DNA of 64,000 nt, taken from the IMG/VR virus record IMGVR_UViG_3300042564_002458, positions 1 to 64,000 of that record; one strand, written 5' to 3'. The stretch comes from a virus. The notes under the pieces are model-generated. The model was not told the DNA's origin. It was given only the letters and a program-made list of their open reading frames with translations, and did not search any database. A program made the position numbers and the translations under genes. Shown here piece after piece: positions 11,734 to 56,253 of this stretch (positions are counted from its first letter, which is position 1; every line of letters begins with the position of its first letter).

Positions 11734-13479
11734 ATGACAATTCGTAGAGATGACAACAAATATACAAAATTATCTAAAGCTGAATATGATGGTCAGGCTA
11801 GAAATGGTGAGATTGTTATTGATTTAGATAATCATAGTGTATGGGTTGGTGATGAGAATGGATATTTATTACCTGTAGGTGGAGTAGGTAGTATTGGTGC
11901 TACTGGGCCAAAAGGATTTACTGGAAGTACTGGTGCTACTGGATTTACTGGAAGTACTGGTGCTACTGGAAGTGGTGCTACTGGAGTTACTGGTTCAACT
12001 GGGTTCATTGGATCAACTGGTGCTACTGGATTTACTGGATCAACTGGTGCTACTGGATTTACTGGATCAACAGGCGCAACTGGGTTTGATGGGGCCACTG
12101 GTGCTGGTGCTACTGGCGCTAGTGGTGCAACTGGTCTTCCTGGTGATCGTTTTTCAACTACTAGTAGTAATACACTTACAATATCAACTGGACTTCAGTC
12201 ATTTACTGCCGGAACTGGATTAGGTTATACACCCGCTCAAGATGTAATTATTGCATATGATTTGAGTAATCATATGATAGGTATGGTAGTATCGTATGAT
12301 TATGTAACAGGCGCCATGATAGTAGATGTTAATAACATTGTTGGCGAAGGGTCTTATTCATTATGGACTATTAATCTTAATGGTGCTGTTGGTATTGCTG
12401 GCGCTACTGGGTTTACTGGTGCTACTGGAAGTACTGGTGCTACTGGTTTCACAGGTTCAACTGGTTTCACAGGTTCAACTGGGTTTACCGGCGCTACTGG
12501 TGCTACTGGAAGTACAGGTGCTACTGGAAGTACAGGTGCCACTGGATTTACTGGTTCCACTGGATTTACTGGTTCCACTGGATTTACTGGTTCCACTGGA
12601 TTTACTGGCGCTACTGGAAGTACGGGTGCTACTGGATTTATAGGAAGTACGGGTGCTACTGGATTTACTGGTGCTACTGGATCAACTGGTGCTACTGGAT
12701 TTATAGGAAGTACGGGTGCTACTGGATTTATAGGAAGTACGGGTGCAGGCGCAACTGGTTCCACTGGTCTTACAGGGGCTACTGGTCCAGTCGTATTGGG
12801 TCTATATTATGGATCGTTCTTCTCCGATTCTGATACTACGTTAGTAGATGCCATGAATACTAATAGCACTGCTCCTATAGTGGTGGTGAGTACAGCGGGA
12901 TTCAGATCGGCAGGATATCTTAACATAGAATCAGAACTTATAAGATATACTGGAATTGTAGGTAATACATTTACCGGAATTACTCGTGGAGTATCAAGCA
13001 GTACTAAAGCAGCACATGATCCTGGTGCATCAATTGGATTTGCTCAAGATGGAGCCGCTGGAGTAGCAGAGATAGCGTTGATAGACATAACCCAATTAAG
13101 TAATGGAGTTACTTTAAATGATGCTACTGGACAAGTAACTATAGTAAATGCCGGTACTTATAATATCACTTTCAGTATACAAGCGGCTAACTTTGGAAAT
13201 GCATATGATGACGTAGCAGTTTGGATTGCTGTTGATGGAGTTAACGTACCTCAAACTGCTAGCTATGCCACTATTTTTCTACCACATGCTGGTAAACCTG
13301 GAACCGTTATCATAACCGTGACATTGTATTATGCATTCACTGCTGGTCAAGTATTAACTGTCAAGTGGTACACACGCCTTGGTACCAGTGCGTTAATCTC
13401 AATACCAAAAATTAGCACTACAGTACCAACATCACCAAGTATTATCTTGGCTGTCAGTCAAATAGCATTGGTTCCATAA
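11734..13479 (+). CDS. Collagen-like (G-x-T) fibre protein
   Basis: Two long GATGSTGFT triplet tracts flanking a beta-rich domain; BclA/C1q-like C-terminus. Confidence 0.85.
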
Positions 13480-41589: not shown

Positions 41590-43152
41590 TTAGAAAGTTA
41601 AACTCAGTCCGGGCGTTATATAAAATGCACCGCTAACTGACAATGTAGTTGTTGCTGAAACACTATATGGTTGATAGGCAAATAAATTTGCACCACCGTG
41701 AAGACTCTCAGCATTACTATAATCAGTAGACAATCCAGTACTATATAGTGCATCTGAAGTTCCAACATCTAATATTTCTTGTTTAATTTGAGCAGGAGTA
41801 TAACTTGGATATTTTTGAGCCATTTGTACTGCCACTCCGGCTACATTAGGACTTGCCATACTGGTGCCACTAATACTCATTATCTTATAATTAGAATCAA
41901 ATGGATAATCAGTAGTTGCCCCGAAATCATTTACTGTACTAGTAGTACTAACAATATTTGTTCCGGGTGCCCAAATATCTACTCTGGGTCCAGACTCACT
42001 AGATCCGGCTTTACGCTCTGGACTATCATATCCTGTGCTTACATTACCTACACAAATTACGCCGGGTGCGGATGGAGGACTTCCTCCCTGCATGTAATAT
42101 CGCGAACTTACACCATCAGTAAAATAATTATCATAATCTAATCCACCAGGAACATCAATAGTTTGATAATAGTTACCGGCTGCTCCACATAATATTACTC
42201 CAGCACTTAGTAGTTCATCAACATCAACATCAACAGTTCCTACTCTGATTCCGAAGCGTTCACCTGATCCACCAATCATTCCATAATTAGGTTGTTTTGT
42301 TGTTCCTGTCCATGAAGTACCACGATATACTCCACCTTGAATATTAGTAAATGTATTAACATAACTCCAACTCATATTAACTACGGTTGGTCTTTTATAT
42401 CCAGTAACAGGATCGATTGGCTTATTTAAATGCCATCCTTTTATAACATCAAATACATCACTAACTGGTAATCCTTGAGTTCCTCCCCCATTAAGTCCCT
42501 CAACCATGACTGAGTATATTCTAGCATTTTTAGCTCGGCCATATGTTAAACCAGCAGCAATTCCGGTACAGTGTGTTCCGTGACCATCAGTATCAGTATA
42601 AAAAAGATTATCGGCTGGTTGAGTACCTGCCAATCCACTGGCTGTATACCAATTTATTTTTTGAACTCTAGTTACCCCCAATGAATCATTAAATTCTGGA
42701 TGATCACACTGTAGACCACTATCTTGAATAACAAAATCGACACCAGTACCATCTAAAATATAATCATAGTCTAATGTACCACTAGAGCCTGGAGTATTAT
42801 TAGTAGTACTGTTTAGTCTAAATAACCCCCAATTAATTCCCATGTTATTAGCGGGATTTGTACCAGGAGATTTATAATATAATCCAGTTTGAGTAGTACT
42901 AGGCATTATCATAATGTCTGTACGTTGATCTGGTGGAATTTCTACACAATATACTCTGGGATCATTTCGTAATAAGGCAGCCTCTTCATCTGATAATTCA
43001 TATGTACAGGTTCGTAAACTCAAGTCACGATTGTTGACAATTTCTACTCTACGACTTGGTACAAAACCATCCTCACTAGATAGATTTTCAATTTCATTCC
43101 AGAATTGATTATAATCAATATCTTTGTTTAAACTTACAGAATATTCTCTCAT
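41590..43152 (-). CDS. Subtilisin-family S8 serine protease
   Basis: Catalytic triad motifs IQDSG, HGTHC, GTSMASP; NMSW; AAGN. Confidence 0.93.
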   Translation of the reverse strand: MREYSVSLNKDIDYNQFWNEIENLSSEDGFVPSRRVEIVNNRDLSLRTCTYELSDEEAALLRNDPRVYCVEIPPDQRTDIMIMPSTTQTGLYYKSPGTNPANNMGINWGLFRLNSTTNNTPGSSGTLDYDYILDGTGVDFVIQDSGLQCDHPEFNDSLGVTRVQKINWYTASGLAGTQPADNLFYTDTDGHGTHCTGIAAGLTYGRAKNARIYSVMVEGLNGGGTQGLPVSDVFDVIKGWHLNKPIDPVTGYKRPTVVNMSWSYVNTFTNIQGGVYRGTSWTGTTKQPNYGMIGGSGERFGIRVGTVDVDVDELLSAGVILCGAAGNYYQTIDVPGGLDYDNYFTDGVSSRYYMQGGSPPSAPGVICVGNVSTGYDSPERKAGSSESGPRVDIWAPGTNIVSTTSTVNDFGATTDYPFDSNYKIMSISGTSMASPNVAGVAVQMAQKYPSYTPAQIKQEILDVGTSDALYSTGLSTDYSNAESLHGGANLFAYQPYSVSATTTLSVSGAFYITPGLSLTF

Positions 43153-48935: not shown

Positions 48936-51026
48936 TTATCTGAAATTCTGTGCAACGTCAATTGGTACGTCTGGAATTGATTGACTACGTTGAGATGTGA
49001 CATTAGCAAGTTCTTGATCATCCGCTCTCTGTAACAAAAAGTCCTGACGAGGTATTCCCTGTGAAGTAGCCCATTGTCTAGCTTTTTCCATAGCATCTCT
49101 CACATCTGTGGCTGAGAATCTATACGCCACATTGCCCGCGCCGACCACACCCGCTCGTCTGCGCATTATATATTCTTGTGAACTTGCATTGTTTCCTCTA
49201 ACGGGTTCAGAGACAGGTTGTTCTTCATAGGGTCTTATTGGGCGAGCAATCATACCACGTTGATCTCTTATCCCCCATTCAAGTGCGGCTTTATTTTTGG
49301 CTTCTGGTTCACCAGTAGCTACTAATTCCATACTGTGGTTTCCAAGTGTTACATTCCACCACATTTTTTTATCAACATATTTGTTTTTTTCAACTTCTCT
49401 CTTGAATTGAACCTGTTTTAAATAATCTTTAAGTGTGGATACTGGCATTACTCCAGAGGAATATTGACTGAATAGTTGAATAATAGTTTGATCTTCTGGC
49501 ATAGCATCAGCAAATAATTTGTACAACTTTTTGGCATATTCTTCGCGTTCTAATTTTGGATTGCTGGCAATTGTAGTGGCATAAGCATATCTCAATAAAG
49601 TATTTTGTATTTTACTCATGTCTTCAAAATAATTCATACCACCAGCAGAACGAAATTCTATATATTTTTCTTTAGGATTAATACTTGTATATTTTCCAAA
49701 CCCACTAGGTTTAGCTAAACTATTACTTGCCAGTTGTGACAAATGATTACGCATTTGATTAAATGATGCCGTAATATCTATACCTTTGGCAGAACTTTTA
49801 ATCTTACTAATGGCACTTTTACAATAAGTATTAGCTGCACGATCAAATGATTGTAATACATATTCATCGCCCAAGAACAATGCAAGTTTAGTGAAATCAA
49901 TATTATCTGATGCATGATCAGGAAGACTTACTGACATATGAAACCCAGTTGATTCATTGGCATAAGCACCGTTATCTTCAGCCCACTTAAAAAACTTTGG
50001 TAACATTTCTATTGTTTCTGGTAATGGCATTGGTGGGCTAACAATTTCTACTGGCATATCTTCATCTTGATTTGCAGTCAAACTAGAATCAGGTTCAAAA
50101 ATCCATGTTGTATCATCTCTTCTAGCACTATGATAACCACTACTGACTATTGTATCAACATCTAAATCTTGTTCTAATGAGGAGGCTAAACTTTCAGCAT
50201 AGTCTTTATTAAACTCGCCATCACCGCTAAGACCTTCATTCTGATCATACATATGAGGCCATATAAGATCATAACGACCTTCTACATCTTGAGCAGAGTT
50301 AATACCTTGAGAACGTAACCATTCAGTTTCATCATAATCGGATTCCTCATTAGCCGTATCTAAAAAATTTTCGTATGCACTATCCCAATCATCATTATGA
50401 TCATTTATTGCTTCTTCTACACGATGATCTAATTGATCAGTGATTCCATCACTAGCGTTAATATAGTTATCAAAGTTTTTATTTTTTTTTCTAATTTCTG
50501 CTTGTTGTTTACTACTTTCTATTTTTCTTGACCACATTTGTCCAGCAGTCAGTGCGCTCTCAACTTCCCTATCACTGAGCTCCATTTCATCTCTCAAATA
50601 TTCTTCAATCTTAGAATCAAAATCCCAATCATCACCTTCAATCCAATCTTTTATTAATTCTTCTGCCTTATCAATAAAATCACTCATTAATTGTTCATCA
50701 CGCCATTCAAGATATTCGTTTAACATTTCTTCACGTATACGTTCTGATTGTCTTGGACCAAGATCAGAAAAATCACCACCTTGATAAAAATTTATGATAT
50801 CATCAATGTTATCAACACGTTCATCCGCATCATAATTATAATCATATTCTGGTTCATAATCATCACGAGATTCATTTCCTCCACTAAAGATTAATTCAGA
50901 TTCAAAACCGGCTTTCATACTTTGAGCTAATGGACTTTTAAGAAATTTTTGAAGATCACTAGAACCCATTCTTACTTCATCAAGTTCTTGATTTTCTAAT
51001 AATGATTTTATTTCTTGATATCTCAT
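48936..51026 (-). CDS. Putative amidoligase (COOH-NH2 ligase) with CTS-like leader and acidic insert
   Basis: GFESE, EPDSS, EIVSPP, STGFHMSVS, KYTSIN, YIEFRSAGG; N-terminus MRYQEIKSLLE. Confidence 0.8.
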   Translation of the reverse strand: MRYQEIKSLLENQELDEVRMGSSDLQKFLKSPLAQSMKAGFESELIFSGGNESRDDYEPEYDYNYDADERVDNIDDIINFYQGGDFSDLGPRQSERIREEMLNEYLEWRDEQLMSDFIDKAEELIKDWIEGDDWDFDSKIEEYLRDEMELSDREVESALTAGQMWSRKIESSKQQAEIRKKNKNFDNYINASDGITDQLDHRVEEAINDHNDDWDSAYENFLDTANEESDYDETEWLRSQGINSAQDVEGRYDLIWPHMYDQNEGLSGDGEFNKDYAESLASSLEQDLDVDTIVSSGYHSARRDDTTWIFEPDSSLTANQDEDMPVEIVSPPMPLPETIEMLPKFFKWAEDNGAYANESTGFHMSVSLPDHASDNIDFTKLALFLGDEYVLQSFDRAANTYCKSAISKIKSSAKGIDITASFNQMRNHLSQLASNSLAKPSGFGKYTSINPKEKYIEFRSAGGMNYFEDMSKIQNTLLRYAYATTIASNPKLEREEYAKKLYKLFADAMPEDQTIIQLFSQYSSGVMPVSTLKDYLKQVQFKREVEKNKYVDKKMWWNVTLGNHSMELVATGEPEAKNKAALEWGIRDQRGMIARPIRPYEEQPVSEPVRGNNASSQEYIMRRRAGVVGAGNVAYRFSATDVRDAMEKARQWATSQGIPRQDFLLQRADDQELANVTSQRSQSIPDVPIDVAQNFR

Positions 51027-51030
51027 GATA

Positions 51031-51351
51031 TTATTTTGTTGATCTTTGTCTTTTTACTTCAGTAACAGTTTCTAATATTGCCAATTTTACTTCTTGTTCA
51101 TGTAATTTATCGTGAATGTCGTTGACTGTACTTTCTATTTTATTTAATCTTTCTTCTAATATATCAGTTTTCTGTTGAATATGTTCTAACATATTGGTCT
51201 GATTATCATGTTGTAATAACGCCTGATCTAATCCACTTGTAACTTTAGCAAACCAATGTTTACCTTGCCACCAGGCTCCACCCATGCCGAATACAAACAC
51301 AAGTATAATCCAGTCTTCTTGAATAGTTTTAATAATATCTAATAAATTCAT
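51031..51351 (-). CDS. Single-TM coiled-coil protein (holin/chaperone-like, unresolved)
   Basis: TM segment followed by heptad repeats. Confidence 0.55.
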   Translation of the reverse strand: MNLLDIIKTIQEDWIILVFVFGMGGAWWQGKHWFAKVTSGLDQALLQHDNQTNMLEHIQQKTDILEERLNKIESTVNDIHDKLHEQEVKLAILETVTEVKRQRSTK

Positions 51352-51752
51352 CTTTCGTATCCTTTGAAACCTTGTATTGGACTATTAGTATCTACTTCAG
51401 ACATTTCTTCACTTTTTTTAGTACTAATCAACTTTTTGTCTGAAGATTTAAGACCAACGATATTAAGAGCATAGTCTATGATATCAGTATCTAAATCATA
51501 AGCTATAATAATTTCATTTTCACCCCATGCACTAGATGGAGCCATAGATGCGCCGCCAGAATCTGATAGTCTTTGTTCTGCGCTACGTGCACCCGCAATG
51601 GCTACTCCAAATCTATATTGTTTGTAGAAATCACTGTTTGGTAATGCGGGAATTGAATATGTGGATGGTAATGATCTTGAAACACTACTACTCAATCTAG
51701 TGTCACTGACTGGCATAGTACTGTTCTCAATTATGAATTCTTTTGCTCTCAT
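51348..51752 (-). CDS. CTS-leader protein, paralog of 51749-52132
   Basis: MRAKEFIIE...SEEMSEVDTNSPIQGFKGYER. Confidence 0.75.
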   Translation of the reverse strand: MRAKEFIIENSTMPVSDTRLSSSVSRSLPSTYSIPALPNSDFYKQYRFGVAIAGARSAEQRLSDSGGASMAPSSAWGENEIIIAYDLDTDIIDYALNIVGLKSSDKKLISTKKSEEMSEVDTNSPIQGFKGYER

Positions 51753-52132
51753 CTTTCATATCCTTTGAAACTTTGAACTGGACTAACTCTATTGACTTCT
51801 GGCATTTCTTCGCTGTTCATGTCACCACTATTTAAATCTTTATATTGTAATCCGGCAGCTTTATATGCCAATTTAAGCATATTCTCTTCTTCTTTAGTGT
51901 AAGCATGTGCAGTATTATGTTTGCCAACCCAACTTTCAGCATCCATTTCTATTGGGTTTATACCATCACTAGATGCAACTGCCATCATTAAACGATTTAA
52001 ATCATATAGTTTATCGTAAGCGTCTATTTTCTTTGTAAAAATATGTAATCCACGAGTTGATTGCTGATTTCCGGGAGAAATTTTGGAAGCCGCTTCGATT
52101 ATCGTAGTAGGAACGAATTCTTTTGCTCTCAT
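51749..52132 (-). CDS. CTS-leader protein, paralog of 51348-51752
   Basis: MRAKEFVPTTIIE...SEEMPEVNRVSPVQSFKGYER. Confidence 0.75.
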   Translation of the reverse strand: MRAKEFVPTTIIEAASKISPGNQQSTRGLHIFTKKIDAYDKLYDLNRLMMAVASSDGINPIEMDAESWVGKHNTAHAYTKEEENMLKLAYKAAGLQYKDLNSGDMNSEEMPEVNRVSPVQSFKGYER

Positions 52133-52134
52133 TA

Positions 52135-52344
52135 TTATTTTTCCAATTTACTAATACGGGGTTTAAATAATTTTTGATCACCTTTAGTAGTTTTTAACAC
52201 TGGTTGATTATGATCATCAGTACTGAATCCAGTTACTTCTGTCTTACGATTCTTGAATTTACCAACTTTAATCTCATCACCAACATTGATAGTAGGTGGT
52301 GTATATGTCTTGGAACTTTCTTGTATGATTTCGTTAATGTTCAT
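52135..52344 (-). CDS. Small KOW/SH3-like protein with CTS-like leader
   Basis: MNINEIIQE; INVGDEIKVGKFKN; TAATG overlap with the upstream gene. Confidence 0.65.
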   Translation of the reverse strand: MNINEIIQESSKTYTPPTINVGDEIKVGKFKNRKTEVTGFSTDDHNQPVLKTTKGDQKLFKPRISKLEK

Positions 52345-54233
52345 TAGCAGTTCCATTTACGTAGTGCTAATGCTTTACGAGTAGGTTTACCATCTTTTTT
52401 CATTGGTCCCTTGACCCCTGACATTCTGGCACAAAAACTCTTACGTCTTTTAGCAGCCTTACTTCCAGGCTTTAATTTACTTGGTTTAGTAGTCACTGCA
52501 GTTTGCAGTTTACTACCAGGATGTTCACGACGATAACTGTTAACACCCTTTTGATTGAGCCCACCAGTCTTGTTCTTACCTGATTTTTTCTGCCATGCAG
52601 CTACTTCATCTAACTTGTTTAATTCTTCTTGTAACCAATTTGATTCGTCTACTTGTGGATCAATACCTTGCTCTTCTTGACTTTTTAAATAATCCCATGA
52701 AGAAACAATCATACCTTCTACATTAGCAATTTTCTCTTGTACCCATTCTGGTAAATTTTCATTGTCATCAATAGTATCTAATAAACCTTCGGCTGCACGT
52801 ATAATAGTATGTAAATTAGTATGAGCCATGCCTGATTCATCATCATACTCAGCGTTATTTTCCATAATTCCAGCTGAACTAACACCTACCGCAACGCTCG
52901 CCAATCCAGTTTTAATGGCATCTGACCAACTCATACCGTGTAGTTTTGCGGCCAGTGTTGGTATTACTGAATTCATTGAACCTTGAAGTATCATGTTAAA
53001 TTGTTGTGGTGACAGACCCATGCTACCAAAATGTTTGATAACTGCACCTGATACTATACTACCAACGATAGTTATAATAACACCTTGTAGATAGGGATTT
53101 TTTGATCCTGCTTTCAACATTGTTAATACTTTGGCACGTTGTTTTCCTGTGGCTTGTGATAATAATTCTTTTGCTTTAGAATTATAATTCTCAACTTTTC
53201 CTGGTTTACTTTGTGACAATTGAGTTTTGTAGAAGTCAGTAATGACACTAGTGACATTTGATTTAGATTCACTACTGCCTTCCGCCACACCTTCTTTTGG
53301 CACACAGTTAGGAACTTTCTTACCGTTTTTCTTCTTCATGCCAACTTGCTTATAGTTATCCCAACATGGGTCTGAGTCTTCCGACACCGCTTGCTCTGCC
53401 AAATCACTATCATCATAATATTGTAGCGCATCCGATACACGATTAATAAGTTCTCTTTCAAGTTTTTGCATGAGAGCATCCGATGCTTTGATTTTTAACT
53501 TTTTAAGAGCGTCCAAAATGTCGTCATCTATATCCCAATGAACATTATTAGATAAAAGTATTCTCTCTACTGCGCTATACACTTGTTCAAACTTAGAGTT
53601 GGCAGATGGTTTCGCAACATCAGCAGCATTTTTAGTGATATTGTTCATCATGCTACCGTATGCTGTATCAGCACGTTGATCGGCTGCGGCACCTTTGTAT
53701 CTAGCACCTTTAACTATCTTTCCCATCATTGAATCAAATGATGTGTCGCCAGTTGTCTCCGCCACACCTTGCTGACCTTTAAGTGCTTGTAATAACGCTC
53801 TAGCAACTACACGATCTTTTTCTTGTTCTTCATCAGGCAATTGAGCATACCCAATGTTCATCAACTTTTCTCGTTGTTGAAGTTTTGCTTCTAATTTTCC
53901 AGCCGCTTTTAACTTTTCTGTATCATCAAATTGATCAGGATTTTGTACAAATGCTTTAGCCGTTACATTCCAACCTTTATGAATAGCATCACTGATTGCT
54001 TCAATATCAGTAATACCTTTATCAATCATTTGTTTAGCATATGCAGCTGATTTTAAATTTGCTTGCCATCCAAATGTATTACCAGGAGAACTACGACCAT
54101 AATGATATGCATTATCTAATGCTTCGTCACTGATAGTGGCCAGTTGTTGTACGCTTAATTGTTTTTGATCACCTTCCGCCACACCTTGAGCGTTCAAGAT
54201 AGTATTTTCTGAGAGAATTTGAGTTATTTTCAT
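52344..54233 (-). CDS. Modular late protein (putative polyprotein B)
   Basis: Modules joined by QGVAEG/QGVAET/QAVSED/EGVAEG linkers; basic C-terminal RKSFCARM module. Confidence 0.8.
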   Translation of the reverse strand: MKITQILSENTILNAQGVAEGDQKQLSVQQLATISDEALDNAYHYGRSSPGNTFGWQANLKSAAYAKQMIDKGITDIEAISDAIHKGWNVTAKAFVQNPDQFDDTEKLKAAGKLEAKLQQREKLMNIGYAQLPDEEQEKDRVVARALLQALKGQQGVAETTGDTSFDSMMGKIVKGARYKGAAADQRADTAYGSMMNNITKNAADVAKPSANSKFEQVYSAVERILLSNNVHWDIDDDILDALKKLKIKASDALMQKLERELINRVSDALQYYDDSDLAEQAVSEDSDPCWDNYKQVGMKKKNGKKVPNCVPKEGVAEGSSESKSNVTSVITDFYKTQLSQSKPGKVENYNSKAKELLSQATGKQRAKVLTMLKAGSKNPYLQGVIITIVGSIVSGAVIKHFGSMGLSPQQFNMILQGSMNSVIPTLAAKLHGMSWSDAIKTGLASVAVGVSSAGIMENNAEYDDESGMAHTNLHTIIRAAEGLLDTIDDNENLPEWVQEKIANVEGMIVSSWDYLKSQEEQGIDPQVDESNWLQEELNKLDEVAAWQKKSGKNKTGGLNQKGVNSYRREHPGSKLQTAVTTKPSKLKPGSKAAKRRKSFCARMSGVKGPMKKDGKPTRKALALRKWNC

Positions 54234-54334
54234 GTTATGTAACCAATATTACTTGTATTTATCAATAACAAATTATATTATAAATTCAAAATGTTACTTT
54301 ATTTTTATATCATATTCAATCTGATAAATAAATG

Positions 54335-54393
54335 TTACAGATGCCGATTGGGTCTGTAAATTTAACTTGCTTAATTAAGGAGATAATATCATG
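54335..54393 (+). promoter_or_regulatory. ROSE-like RNA thermometer in the dnaK 5' UTR
   Basis: 5' hairpin TTACAGA/TCTGTAA; CTTGCTT (54366-72) pairs with SD AAGGAG (54377-82) with a bulged G. Confidence 0.65.
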
Positions 54394-56253
54394 AGCAAAA
54401 ATGTTGTCATAGGCGTAGATTTGGGCACCACTAATAGTTGTGTATCCATTGTTGAAAACGGAAAATACAAAATCATTGAAAATAGCGAGGGTGGAAGAAC
54501 AACACCTAGTATTGTAGCATATTCGAACGATGAAATTCTAGTTGGCGCATCAGCCAAGAGACAATCCGTAACTAATCCCATAAATACAATTTATGCTGCC
54601 AAACGACTAATTGGTCGTAAATTCAAAGAACAGGCGGTTCAGAAAGACATTGACTTGATGCCATATAAAATCATTGAGTCAAAGAATGGCGATGCATGGG
54701 TATATGCCGCAGATAAAGAATTAGCACCACCTCAAATTAGTGCAGAAGTTCTTCGTAAAATGAAGAAGACTGCCGAAGATTATCTTGGTCATGAAGTCAC
54801 TCAGGCAGTTATAACAGTACCAGCCTACTTTAATGATAGTCAACGTCAAGCAACTAAAGATGCTGGTAAAATAGCTGGGCTTGAAGTTCTTCGTATTATC
54901 AATGAACCAACTGCTGCAGCGTTAGCATACGGTGTTGATAAACAAGATAAAAAAGATCGTAAAATTGCAGTATATGACTTGGGTGGTGGAACGTTTGATG
55001 TTTCAATTATAGAAATAGCCAATGTTGATGGAGATAAGCAAATTGAAGTTTTATCGACCAACGGAGATACATTCTTGGGCGGTGAAGATTTTGATCAACG
55101 ATTGATGGATTATTTAGTAGACGAATTCAAAAAAGATAGTGGAGTTGATCTTAAAAATGATATGTTGGCACTACAGAGATTAAAAGATTCTGCAGAACGA
55201 GCAAAGATTGAATTGTCAAGTTCACAACAAACTGCGGTTAATTTACCATATATTACCGCTGATAGTTCTGGCCCACGACACATGAATATTATTATTACTC
55301 GTTCTAAGTTGGAATCATTAGTAGAAGACTTAATCAAGCGTAGTATTGAACCATGTAAAATTGCTCTAAAAGATGCGGGAATGTCAACAAGTGACATAGA
55401 CGAGATAATTCTTGTTGGGGGGCAAACTCGTATGCCAAAAGTACAAGAGGCCGTAGAGAAATTATTTGGTAAAATTCCACGAAAAGATATTAATCCAGAT
55501 GAGGCTGTAGCCGCGGGCGCCGCAATTCAGGGTGCAGTATTATCAGGTGATCGCAATGATGTTCTATTACTTGATGTGACTCCACTATCACTTGGTATTG
55601 AAACAATGGGTGGTGTAATGACTAAATTAGTTCAAAAGAATACAACTATTCCAACCAAGGCAAGTCAAATATTCTCTACAGCAGAAGATAATCAATCGGC
55701 CGTTACTGTAAAAGTATTTCAGGGTGAACGTGAATTAGTTCAATACAATAAGTCATTAGGTGAGTTTAATTTGGAAGGAATTCCACCATCTCGTCGAGGT
55801 ATTCCACAAATTGAAGTTACATTTGATATTGACGCAAACGGAATCATGCATATCAAAGCTAGCGACAAAGGTACTGGTAAAGAAAATAAAATTACCATTA
55901 AATCAAATAGTGGATTGAGCGAAAGTGAAATTCAACAAATGGTTCAAGAAGCAGAAGACAATGCCGATTCTGATAAAAAGATGAAAGATTTAATTCTTAC
56001 AAGAAATCATGCTGAGTCAGTAATTCATGAATGTACAACAGATTTAAAAGATTTCGGAAATCAATTAAGTCAAGAAGAAAAAACTTCAATTGAATCTGTC
56101 ATTGAATCTATTAAAACTGTCATGACAGGTGAAGATAGTGAGTTGATTACTAGTGAAATAACAAAACTATATGAAGTTTCCAAACCGCTTAATGAGAAGA
56201 AAATGAAAAAACAGTCATCAGATGAATTAGATGATACTGTGGTAGATGTCTAA
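54391..56253 (+). CDS. dnaK: Hsp70 chaperone DnaK
   Basis: [40 protein letters not shown]. Confidence 0.98.

Follow-up and report, generated by a model that had tools for sequence, protein, structure and literature searches.

An in-frame 18-nt repeat at the module borders of a lake-water phage polyprotein: a recombination joint and putative head-protease site

How can a single phage gene hold a string of unrelated small modules and keep the same few codons between them, and what might these codons be for? The question is raised by an open reading frame (ORF) of 629 amino acids (aa) on the minus strand of the virus record IMGVR_UViG_3300042564_002458 (G000; 120,921 bases), the first 64 kb of which are the window analyzed here. 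In relatives of this ORF, an element of 18 nt, CAA GGT GTG GCG GAA GGC (QGVAEG), joins hundreds of unrelated modules in frame, and we are highly confident that it is a recombination joint acting at the DNA level. Injected phage proteins are a first-line counter-defence, and the way in which their repertoire diversifies is poorly understood beyond the few internal proteins of T4.

Module exchange at an in-frame repeat

With at most one mismatch, AGGTGTGGCGGA matches the window three times (54175-54186, 53758-53769 and 53281-53292), compared with an expectation of 0.06 from shuffled windows, and none of 100 shuffles reached three matches. It occurs nowhere else in the entire record, and the reversed control gave 0 matches. 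A preliminary description of the window had placed four repeat sites, three exact and one decayed, on the minus strand; all of them were located, and the genome-wide search that it had proposed returned these three exact copies only. The four junctions belong to one ORF and read QGVAE|G, QGVAE|T, QAVSE|D and EGVAE|G (Table 1), and the locus L087 carries the canonical GGTGTGGCGGAAGG at the site orthologous to the decayed third linker.

Judged by homology breakpoints, the target ORF holds at least six unrelated modules, and the earlier claim that the modules have nothing in common is borne out in that homology to other proteins begins and ends at the motifs. A word-indexed search with aa 1-330 yielded 703 proteins among 8,000 scored candidates, and an exhaustive search with aa 1-318 yielded 2,616 representative clusters at E ≤0.001 (218 at E ≤1e-30), nearly all matches covering module A alone with 60-97% identity. 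Module A may stand at any position in proteins of 177-1,399 aa, flanked by unrelated sequence. In the BLASTP comparison with the target, the starts of 191 of 266 high-scoring segment pairs (HSPs) fall into aa 11-25 and the ends of 136 into aa 151-170, corresponding to linkers 1 and 2, and the matches of module B span from aa 150-157 to aa 283-288, corresponding to the stretch from linker 2 to linker 3 (a contig scan with module B gave 2 loci only). Among the tetrapeptides of the first 120 homologues, GVAE ranks first, with 224 occurrences compared with 2.4 expected. When 229 proteins were cut at a deliberately permissive linker pattern, we obtained 1,548 segments with a median length of 73 aa, with a median of 6 and a maximum of 16 segments per protein; those of at least 25 aa fell into 611 families, 439 of them singletons. 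The 211 copies of module A had left neighbors from 112 and right neighbors from 129 families and occupied slots 0 to 11, and 221 of the 229 proteins had distinct architectures. Internal protein HSP ends lay within 8 aa of a linker in 42% of 100,143 cases compared with 9% at random, with the peak exactly on the Glu, these all-against-all counts being dominated by module A.

The exchange itself is visible in near-identical relatives, in which module gains, losses and swaps break on the repeat, the outcome on which the preliminary description had staked its recombination joint. Locus L005 is 99.2% identical to nt 97-958 of the ORF, runs through AAGGTGTGGCGGAAGGCA of linker 4 and is unrelated thereafter, and in L087-L093 an identity of 93% is confined to the stretch that opens with the first base of linker 2 and closes shortly after linker 3, with unrelated sequence on both sides. 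The proteins P0004 and P0005 are 100% identical over 563 plus 231 aa and differ by one 105-aa cassette, the ends of which lie in a GVAEG direct repeat. The protein identical to the target ORF, P0001 (a cluster with 7 member sequences), is 100% identical to P0006 except for a 107-aa insert between two linkers, and 99% identical to P0002 up to aa 319 and unrelated beyond. Furthermore, a second polyprotein of the record (Table 1) retains 16 aa from the start of module A as a remnant, together with a CW...NCVP module; its first 285 aa are common to P0005, where they are fused through SVAE|S to modules A-B-C, and P0004 likewise has the N-terminal part of the second polyprotein fused to these three modules. 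Among 95 loci and the window region compared at ≥90% identity, 69 of 258 internal DNA match ends lay within 12 nt of a linker-like 11-mer (2.2 at random); the other 189 were off linkers, many of them in flanking genes. A weak hint comes from contig loose ends, which lie at or near linker 4 in four entries from three lake-water runs (53276-53296) and at or near linker 1 in two entries, making up 6 of the 24 loose ends among those listed for four lake-water runs, with the other 18 elsewhere.

The motif is also conserved at the level of codons. In 80 module-A loci and this record, GVAE is written exactly GGTGTGGCGGAA in 106 of 155 instances and GGTGTGGCGGAG in 12 more. After junctions with similar flanks had been merged into 166 classes, Val was encoded by GTG in 117 of 148 and Ala by GCG in 111 of 138, and under stricter merging the canonical motif was present in 62 of 111 classes. 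In the same ORFs, GTG accounts for 19.9% of the Val and GCG for 6.4% of the Ala codons, and the 13 VAE tripeptides elsewhere in the ORFs of the record use GTG in 4 cases and GCG in 0. The GC-rich linker codons emphasized in the preliminary description are thus real, and the test of synonymous sites that it had proposed shows the linker to be conserved at these sites even among diverged phages, GTG and GCG being used in ~80% of the junction classes. Ser variants of the motif are written TCG, one change from GCG, in 7 of 9 cases (background 4.3%); the codon before GVAE is nearly always CAA (79 cases, with CAG in 3), the Gly that follows is mostly GGC, and the Gly and Glu codons within the motif are the common GGT and GAA. 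Conserved Val and Ala columns inside module A use GTA/GTT and GCA/GCT. Along the aligned junctions, the information content is ~0.1 bit on both sides of the motif and reaches 1-2 bits within a stretch of exactly 18 nt, a rise that extends to third codon positions. Each of the 151 copies of the 11-mer (93 related loci and this record) lies within an open frame of ≥100 aa and is read there in frame as GVAE, and the 12-mer is present in each of five other large records with 1-6 copies apiece, the reversed controls giving 0. Candidate protease sites in scaffold and capsid genes of the relatives (LVAEG, FVAES, LLAE|S) are written in ordinary codons, with GCG in 0 of 25 cases, which indicates that the peptide does not require these codons and that the junctions carry an additional identity in their DNA. 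A dedicated enzyme recognizing the motif is conceivable.

A putative head-protease site behind capsid-targeting-like leaders

In T4, gp21 cleaves after the motif L/I-X-E (PMC9026906, sections 9 and 10), and the same article gives the 10-residue capsid-targeting sequence (CTS) of IPIII as enough for packaging into the head, while in a portion of PMC3012670 the T4 internal proteins are portrayed as diverse, with only the targeting sequence conserved. T4-CTS-like leaders (M-R/K-x-x-E-F/I/L-...-E) open thirteen genes of our record, the target included (Table 1), with examples such as MRAKEFIIEN, MRAYEFLIEN and MKINELLSEM, which suggests that many proteins are packaged into the head. The products of the CTS-leader genes include proteins with a GP88 (PF17338) and an Amidoligase_2 domain.

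Hydrophobic-x-Glu occurs within the first 20 aa of 162 of 214 homologues, compared with a background of 29%. At ten loci, some in records that carry gp21, module A forms a stand-alone gene of 139-158 aa that begins with a leader of 9-19 aa. This leader closes with I/L-N-E (ILE in L073), a few residues short of the module, and the gene stops at the position expected for the next linker. The last residues of the leader, just before module A, therefore stand roughly at the place of the linker in the polyproteins. Junctions retain hydrophobic-x-Glu even where the DNA motif is lost: it was present in 45 of 53 on the C side, only 21 of which are canonical, and in at least 42 of 63 on the N side, 8 of which are canonical, compared with a background of 12%; several of the N-side misses fall just outside the scored stretch.

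The relatives of G000 provide a candidate protease. CheckV assigns the record a completeness of 34%, implying a genome of ~350 kb. Its DNA polymerase matches those of 4 of the 5 searched records over the full length with 55-68% identity, and all four, larger than G000, encode a gp21-type prohead protease (PF03420, E 1e-23 to 1e-30). Across 15 related records, PF03420 turned up in 8; of the 8 records with a completeness of ≥50%, 7 carry it. The capsid protein gp23 (PF07068, E about 1e-99) was found in 3 of the 5 records, namely in G001 and G004, which are among the four polymerase relatives, and in the further related record G003. Moreover, G001, with both gp21 and gp23, encodes a 560-aa protein with the leader MRFTEFISE, five GVAE linkers and DUF6321 and without module A. 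The connection to T4 drawn in the preliminary description thus finds support in relatives that encode a gp21-type protease together with gp23 and in proteins that begin with T4-like capsid-targeting leaders. From this gene content, G000 is read as a T4-like jumbo phage from lake water; as its polymerase relatives carry gp21, two of them gp23 as well, and the fragment showed neither, the head-gene block is taken to lie beyond the sampled part. The target gene is present in twenty public runs labelled lake water metagenome, and no RNA run is listed among the sequencing runs that hold it. Judging from sequence data, we consider the V-A-E of the linker to be rather probably a site of the gp21-type prohead protease, and we infer that the protein would be cleaved at the linker, packaged and injected.

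Several observations weigh against these conclusions. The P3 position of the motif is mostly Val or Met and not the Leu/Ile of the T4 consensus, and the avoidance of internal hydrophobic-x-Glu is weak: the target has 0 such sites compared with 3.5 expected (P=0.017), and the copies of module A average 1.14 internal sites compared with 2.11 after shuffling, 124 of 211 having at least one. Neither gp21 nor gp23 was detected by profile search in the G000 fragment (34% complete) or in G002 (75% complete). DUF6321 and a small basic module occur in cultured podoviruses as well, which, to our knowledge, are not expected to carry a gp21-type protease, and the T4 late-promoter octamer TATAAATA is not enriched (7 copies compared with 13 expected). 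On the side of recombination, 58% of the protein HSP ends and 73% of the DNA match ends lie away from recognizable linkers, and many of the counts are not independent, as the data set was gathered through module A.

Parts of the polyprotein gene and its surroundings

The coordinates of the target ORF, its modules and its surroundings are compiled in Table 1. DUF6321 (PF19846; aa 552-627, E 9.9e-20, 71.4 bits compared with a gathering cut-off of 28.5) is the only Pfam domain named in the target ORF and its only match to cultured phages (516 phage records), and the PHROGs matches are to families of unknown function only. For module A, the RyR domain PF02026 matches 23 of 40 sequences weakly (best E 0.013), and a PDB profile search returned RyR chains, again weakly (E 0.066-1.4 over 26 residues); the signal centers on ...Y-x-Q-L-P-x-E-E-x-E-K-D-R... 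Some relatives contain ParBc, GNAT, dCMP deaminase or cytidylyltransferase domains according to precomputed Pfam annotation. When module A was compared by tblastn with 50,697 phage records, nothing matched, and no cultured phage among them carries it. The polyprotein of G001 (L106:2342-4024) matches cultured phages solely through one 40-aa basic module. This module (GLWANIHAK...GSKGAPT, L106 aa 11-52) is present in 77 cultured phage records, including cyanopodoviruses, pelagiphages and roseophages, indicating that modules circulate well beyond T4-like phages. In cultured T4-like Synechococcus phages (L104:1441-3351, L105:964-3411), DUF6321 ends long lysine-rich proteins, one of the two being annotated as 'structural protein'; GVAE linkers are absent from these two proteins, and the one in L105 contains a small Cys-containing module common to the polyprotein family, with V-K-E on both sides.

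G000 has a GC content of 33.8%, is ~90% coding, and its gene content includes a family-B DNA polymerase, an S8 subtilase, a collagen-repeat protein and a DnaK homologue. Four of the five genes downstream of the target have CTS-like N-termini (MELLMNINEIIQES, MRAKEFVPTTIIEA, MRAKEFIIEN and MRYQEIKSLLEN). The octamer TATAAATA was rejected as promoter of the target gene, upstream of which it is not found; the variant GATAAATA, which differs by one base from the T4 late-promoter consensus, is present there. Of its 14 copies in the record, 13 precede a predicted gene start by no more than 80 nt and have the same orientation as the gene, and the genes behind it include the target, dnaK and three other CTS genes. 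GATAAATA is likely a promoter, as far as position and orientation tell.

Table 1 Features of the polyprotein gene, its surroundings and the record (window positions unless stated otherwise; cut points and promoter are predicted)
Feature	Position	Strand	Remark
Modular polyprotein ORF, 629 aa	52344..54233	-	Stop codon 52344-52346
Promoter-like octamer GATAAATA	54256..54263	-	23 nt upstream of ATG
N-terminal leader MKITQILSE	54207..54233	-	CTS-like, ends L-S-E, putative cut point before N
Linker 1 CAAGGTGTGGCGGAAGG (QGVAE|G)	54172..54188	-	BLASTP HSP starts cluster at aa 11-25
Module A, aa 21-159	53757..54173	-	Most widespread module; weak RyR-domain resemblance
Linker 2 CAAGGTGTGGCGGAGA (QGVAE|T)	53756..53771	-	HSP ends cluster at aa 151-170
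Module B, aa 160-285	53379..53756	-	Homology limits
Linker 3, decayed, CAAGCGGTGTCGGAAGA (QAVSE|D)	53377..53393	-	Degenerate copy GCGGTGTCGGA at ORF nt 844
Module C, aa 286-318	53280..53378	-	Small, basic, CW...NCVP motif; phrog_727, 9737, 36547, 22379
Linker 4 GAAGGTGTGGCGGAAGG (EGVAE|G)	53278..53294	-	99.2% DNA identity with L005 ends just past it
Module D, aa 319-458	52860..53279	-	Basic, hydrophobic stretches; homology limits
Decayed junction G-I-M-E|N closing module D	52860-52871	-	HSP starts at aa 456-460
Module E, aa 459-530	52644..52859	-	Acidic; directly after GVEEG linker in relative P0008
Junction Q-V-D-E|S closing module E	52644-52655	-	Hydrophobic-x-Glu
Module F, aa 531-629	52347..52643	-	Very basic, C-terminal, DUF6321 (Pfam PF19846)
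Five co-directional genes downstream of the target	48936..52356	-	Last one carries Amidoligase_2
CTS-like genes, window	11287, 13550, 16310, 17574, 18256, 18644, 48936-51026, 51348-51752, 51749-52132, 52135-52356
CTS-like genes, record positions	94160-94804, 94801-95352
Second polyprotein, 772 aa	13550..15868	+	Decayed linkers SVEE, GMKE, DVTE
GATAAATA copies, window	11273, 13520, 30934, 39646, 46460(-), 46862(-), 54256(-), 54323
GATAAATA copies, record positions	88215, 95358(-), 102792, 112085(-)
DnaK homologue, full-length	54391-56253	+	Adjoins the polyprotein gene, divergent transcription
S8 subtilase	41590-43152	-	PF00082, E 2.5e-30; 9 kb from the polyprotein gene
Collagen-triple-helix repeat protein	11734-13479	+

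Proposed explanation, rivals and known systems

We propose that a short capsid-targeting leader opens the polyprotein and that small, mutually unrelated modules come after it in series, with the in-frame 18-nt element at every join. At the DNA level this element serves as the crossover point of homologous exchange, by which modules enter, leave or replace one another without loss of frame, both between paralogous loci and from phage to phage. At the protein level, its V-A-E would be cut by a gp21-type protease after hydrophobic-x-Glu, so that the polyprotein would be divided inside the prohead into separate small internal proteins traveling with the DNA. Junctions that keep the DNA motif would continue to recombine and spread, and mutated ones would freeze with only hydrophobic-x-Glu left; GTG and GCG might persist because the junctions with the DNA motif keep exchanging. 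Their persistence may show second-order selection for exchangeability, which would be a rare case. That the element combines both roles, recombination joint and protease site, appears to us somewhat better than an even bet, and that a dual-coded 18-nt element turns the repertoire of injected proteins into a combinatorial library in a T4-like jumbo lineage is a tentative view, a little short of even.

One motif of 18 nt would then appear to solve three problems, the keeping of the frame, the homology for exchange and the site for release. A module flanked by the element would fit into the polyprotein of any related phage, be packaged through the shared leader and be freed inside the capsid, resulting in an 'effector integron' that runs on general homologous recombination and the head protease, free of an integrase. 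A scan for motif and leader could find capsid-delivered proteins in uncultured jumbo phages, and hundreds of small modules of unknown function could be catalogued as candidate anti-defence or DNA-condensing proteins. A possible use lies in engineering, where phage heads could carry several cargos encoded by a single gene.

In one rival explanation, the motif is a recombination joint and otherwise a flexible spacer only, within a full-length multidomain 'polyvalent' protein, packaged or not, and hydrophobic-x-Glu is a by-product of descent from one ancestral linker. The evidence for the DNA joint fits this explanation equally and the weak avoidance of internal sites speaks for it, as does the account of polyvalent proteins in a part of PMC5512222, according to which they need not be cut between all domains. 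However, junctions that lack the DNA motif keep hydrophobic-x-Glu far above the background of 12%, stand-alone module A genes have, shortly before the module, a CTS-type leader with I/L-N-E at its end, and the relatives possess a gp21-type protease, which makes a mere spacer rather unlikely in our judgment. The polyprotein might also be processed within the cytoplasm, with the S8 subtilase or ClpP as candidate enzymes, and yield products that act late in the infected cell and are not packaged. The subtilase gene 9 kb away and the failure to see gp21 in the fragment agree with this. CTS-like leaders are nevertheless the rule among these proteins, and gp21 is present in nearly all of the more complete relatives. 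A cut after Glu behind a hydrophobic P3 is the signature of the gp21 family, and we know of no subtilase with this preference, so that we give cytoplasmic cleavage only a very slim chance.

Other explanations concern the DNA motif. Its codons might be conserved for translation or as RNA, as a pause, caused by rare codons or by the Shine-Dalgarno-like AAGGTG, during which each module could fold, or as a protein-binding site of the RNA, with exchange being incidental. GTG, GCG and TCG are rare in these genes, AAGGTG is part of the motif and all 151 copies are in frame, as expected for such a function; against it, folding of the RNA around the three copies gave neither a stable structure nor one common to them (fold z -0.11, -0.39, -0.13), the Gly and Glu codons are common ones, and a pause predicts neither blocks of DNA identity between phages that are bounded by the motif nor the TCG of the Ser variants, which is expected by a single change from GCG. 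We hold a role in translation or as RNA to be improbable. That the repeat arose by chance or by a local, recent intragenic duplication without wider meaning might be suggested by its only three exact copies in the record, and can be regarded as refuted: none of the shuffles reached this number, the 11-mer recurs always in frame across the 93 related loci, the motif is present in each of the five other large records with reversed controls of 0, and the sequences between the copies are mutually unrelated.

Among known systems, the combined reading as joint and protease site is close to the T4 internal proteins IPI, IPII, IPIII and Alt, in which, according to parts of PMC9026906 and PMC3012670, a short leader ends in hydrophobic-x-Glu, the genes are clustered and a diverse, fast-evolving cargo stands behind a conserved leader; a gp21-type protease is likewise present in our relatives. 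Here, in contrast, many cargos share one ORF with a repeated internal site, and leader and linker are conserved as DNA. Homology to T4 internal proteins was not detected in the target with Pfam. The polyvalent proteins of Iyer et al. 2017 (PMC5512222) are similar in that they consist of 2-15 unrelated domains in mosaic combinations and are thought to be packaged and injected. As far as that text goes, they are processed, if at all, by an MPTase-type peptidase domain of their own, and it mentions no conserved junction motif, the word 'linker' appearing 0 times. In contrast, the modules of our family are mostly small (median 73 aa) and mostly of unknown family; the target has DUF6321 only and none of the recognized polyvalent effector domains, and a peptidase domain was not seen. 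Head and inner-body proteins of the jumbo phages phiKZ, 201phi2-1 and SPN3US are also cut after Glu (S/A-X-E, A-X-E), often at several sites, by proteases related to gp21 (parts of PMC9026906 and PMC5694885); these cuts have another P3 preference and remove propeptides instead of separating an array of cassettes, and conservation of the sites at the DNA level is not reported in those parts.

Regarding the DNA element, the PeSL cassettes (Arbiol et al. 2010, PMC2839356) resemble it as short conserved elements that shuffle modules in plastic regions of T4-type phages, although, in the portion of that article used here, PeSLs are intergenic promoter-plus-terminator stem-loops that shuffle whole genes. 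A PeSL structure (sigma-70-like promoter and terminator stem-loop) was rejected for our motif, which has 18 nt, is coding and in frame, lacks RNA structure and a stem-loop, and shuffles parts of one protein. In the glycine-rich motifs (GRMs) of the gp38 adhesin (Trojet et al. 2011, PMC3157838, in part), coding motifs lie between hypervariable segments and exchange near or within them yields in-frame chimeras; the GRMs keep a fixed order and make up the core structure of a single folded domain. The motif described here separates independent modules that vary in order, number and identity, and is compatible with a protease site as well. The conserved motifs in tail fibre genes of T-even phages, which Tetart and colleagues reportedly described in 1998, can be likened to the GRM type of exchange.

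The integron-like array of the preliminary description holds as an analogy only, in that exchangeable cassettes are bounded by a repeated site. IntI was not detected, a tyrosine recombinase (PF00589) being found in 0 of 5 records and the control in 14 of 14 genomes; the motif is non-palindromic and has no attC-like fold, and the cassettes are not separate ORFs but parts of one continuous frame. In polymorphic toxins such as Rhs and CdiA, a motif conserved as peptide and as DNA marks the point at which variable modules are exchanged, and in Rhs cleavage occurs there. These are secreted bacterial toxins with one junction per protein, in contrast to the many junctions of a putative phage head protein. 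Each piece is already known, from internal proteins with a CTS and polyvalent proteins to recombination at motifs and multiple cuts after Glu. A junction that recurs in frame, is conserved in its codons, marks the breakpoints of exchange and fits the site of a head protease was encountered neither in our search of the published literature for such linkers nor among 50,697 phage records.

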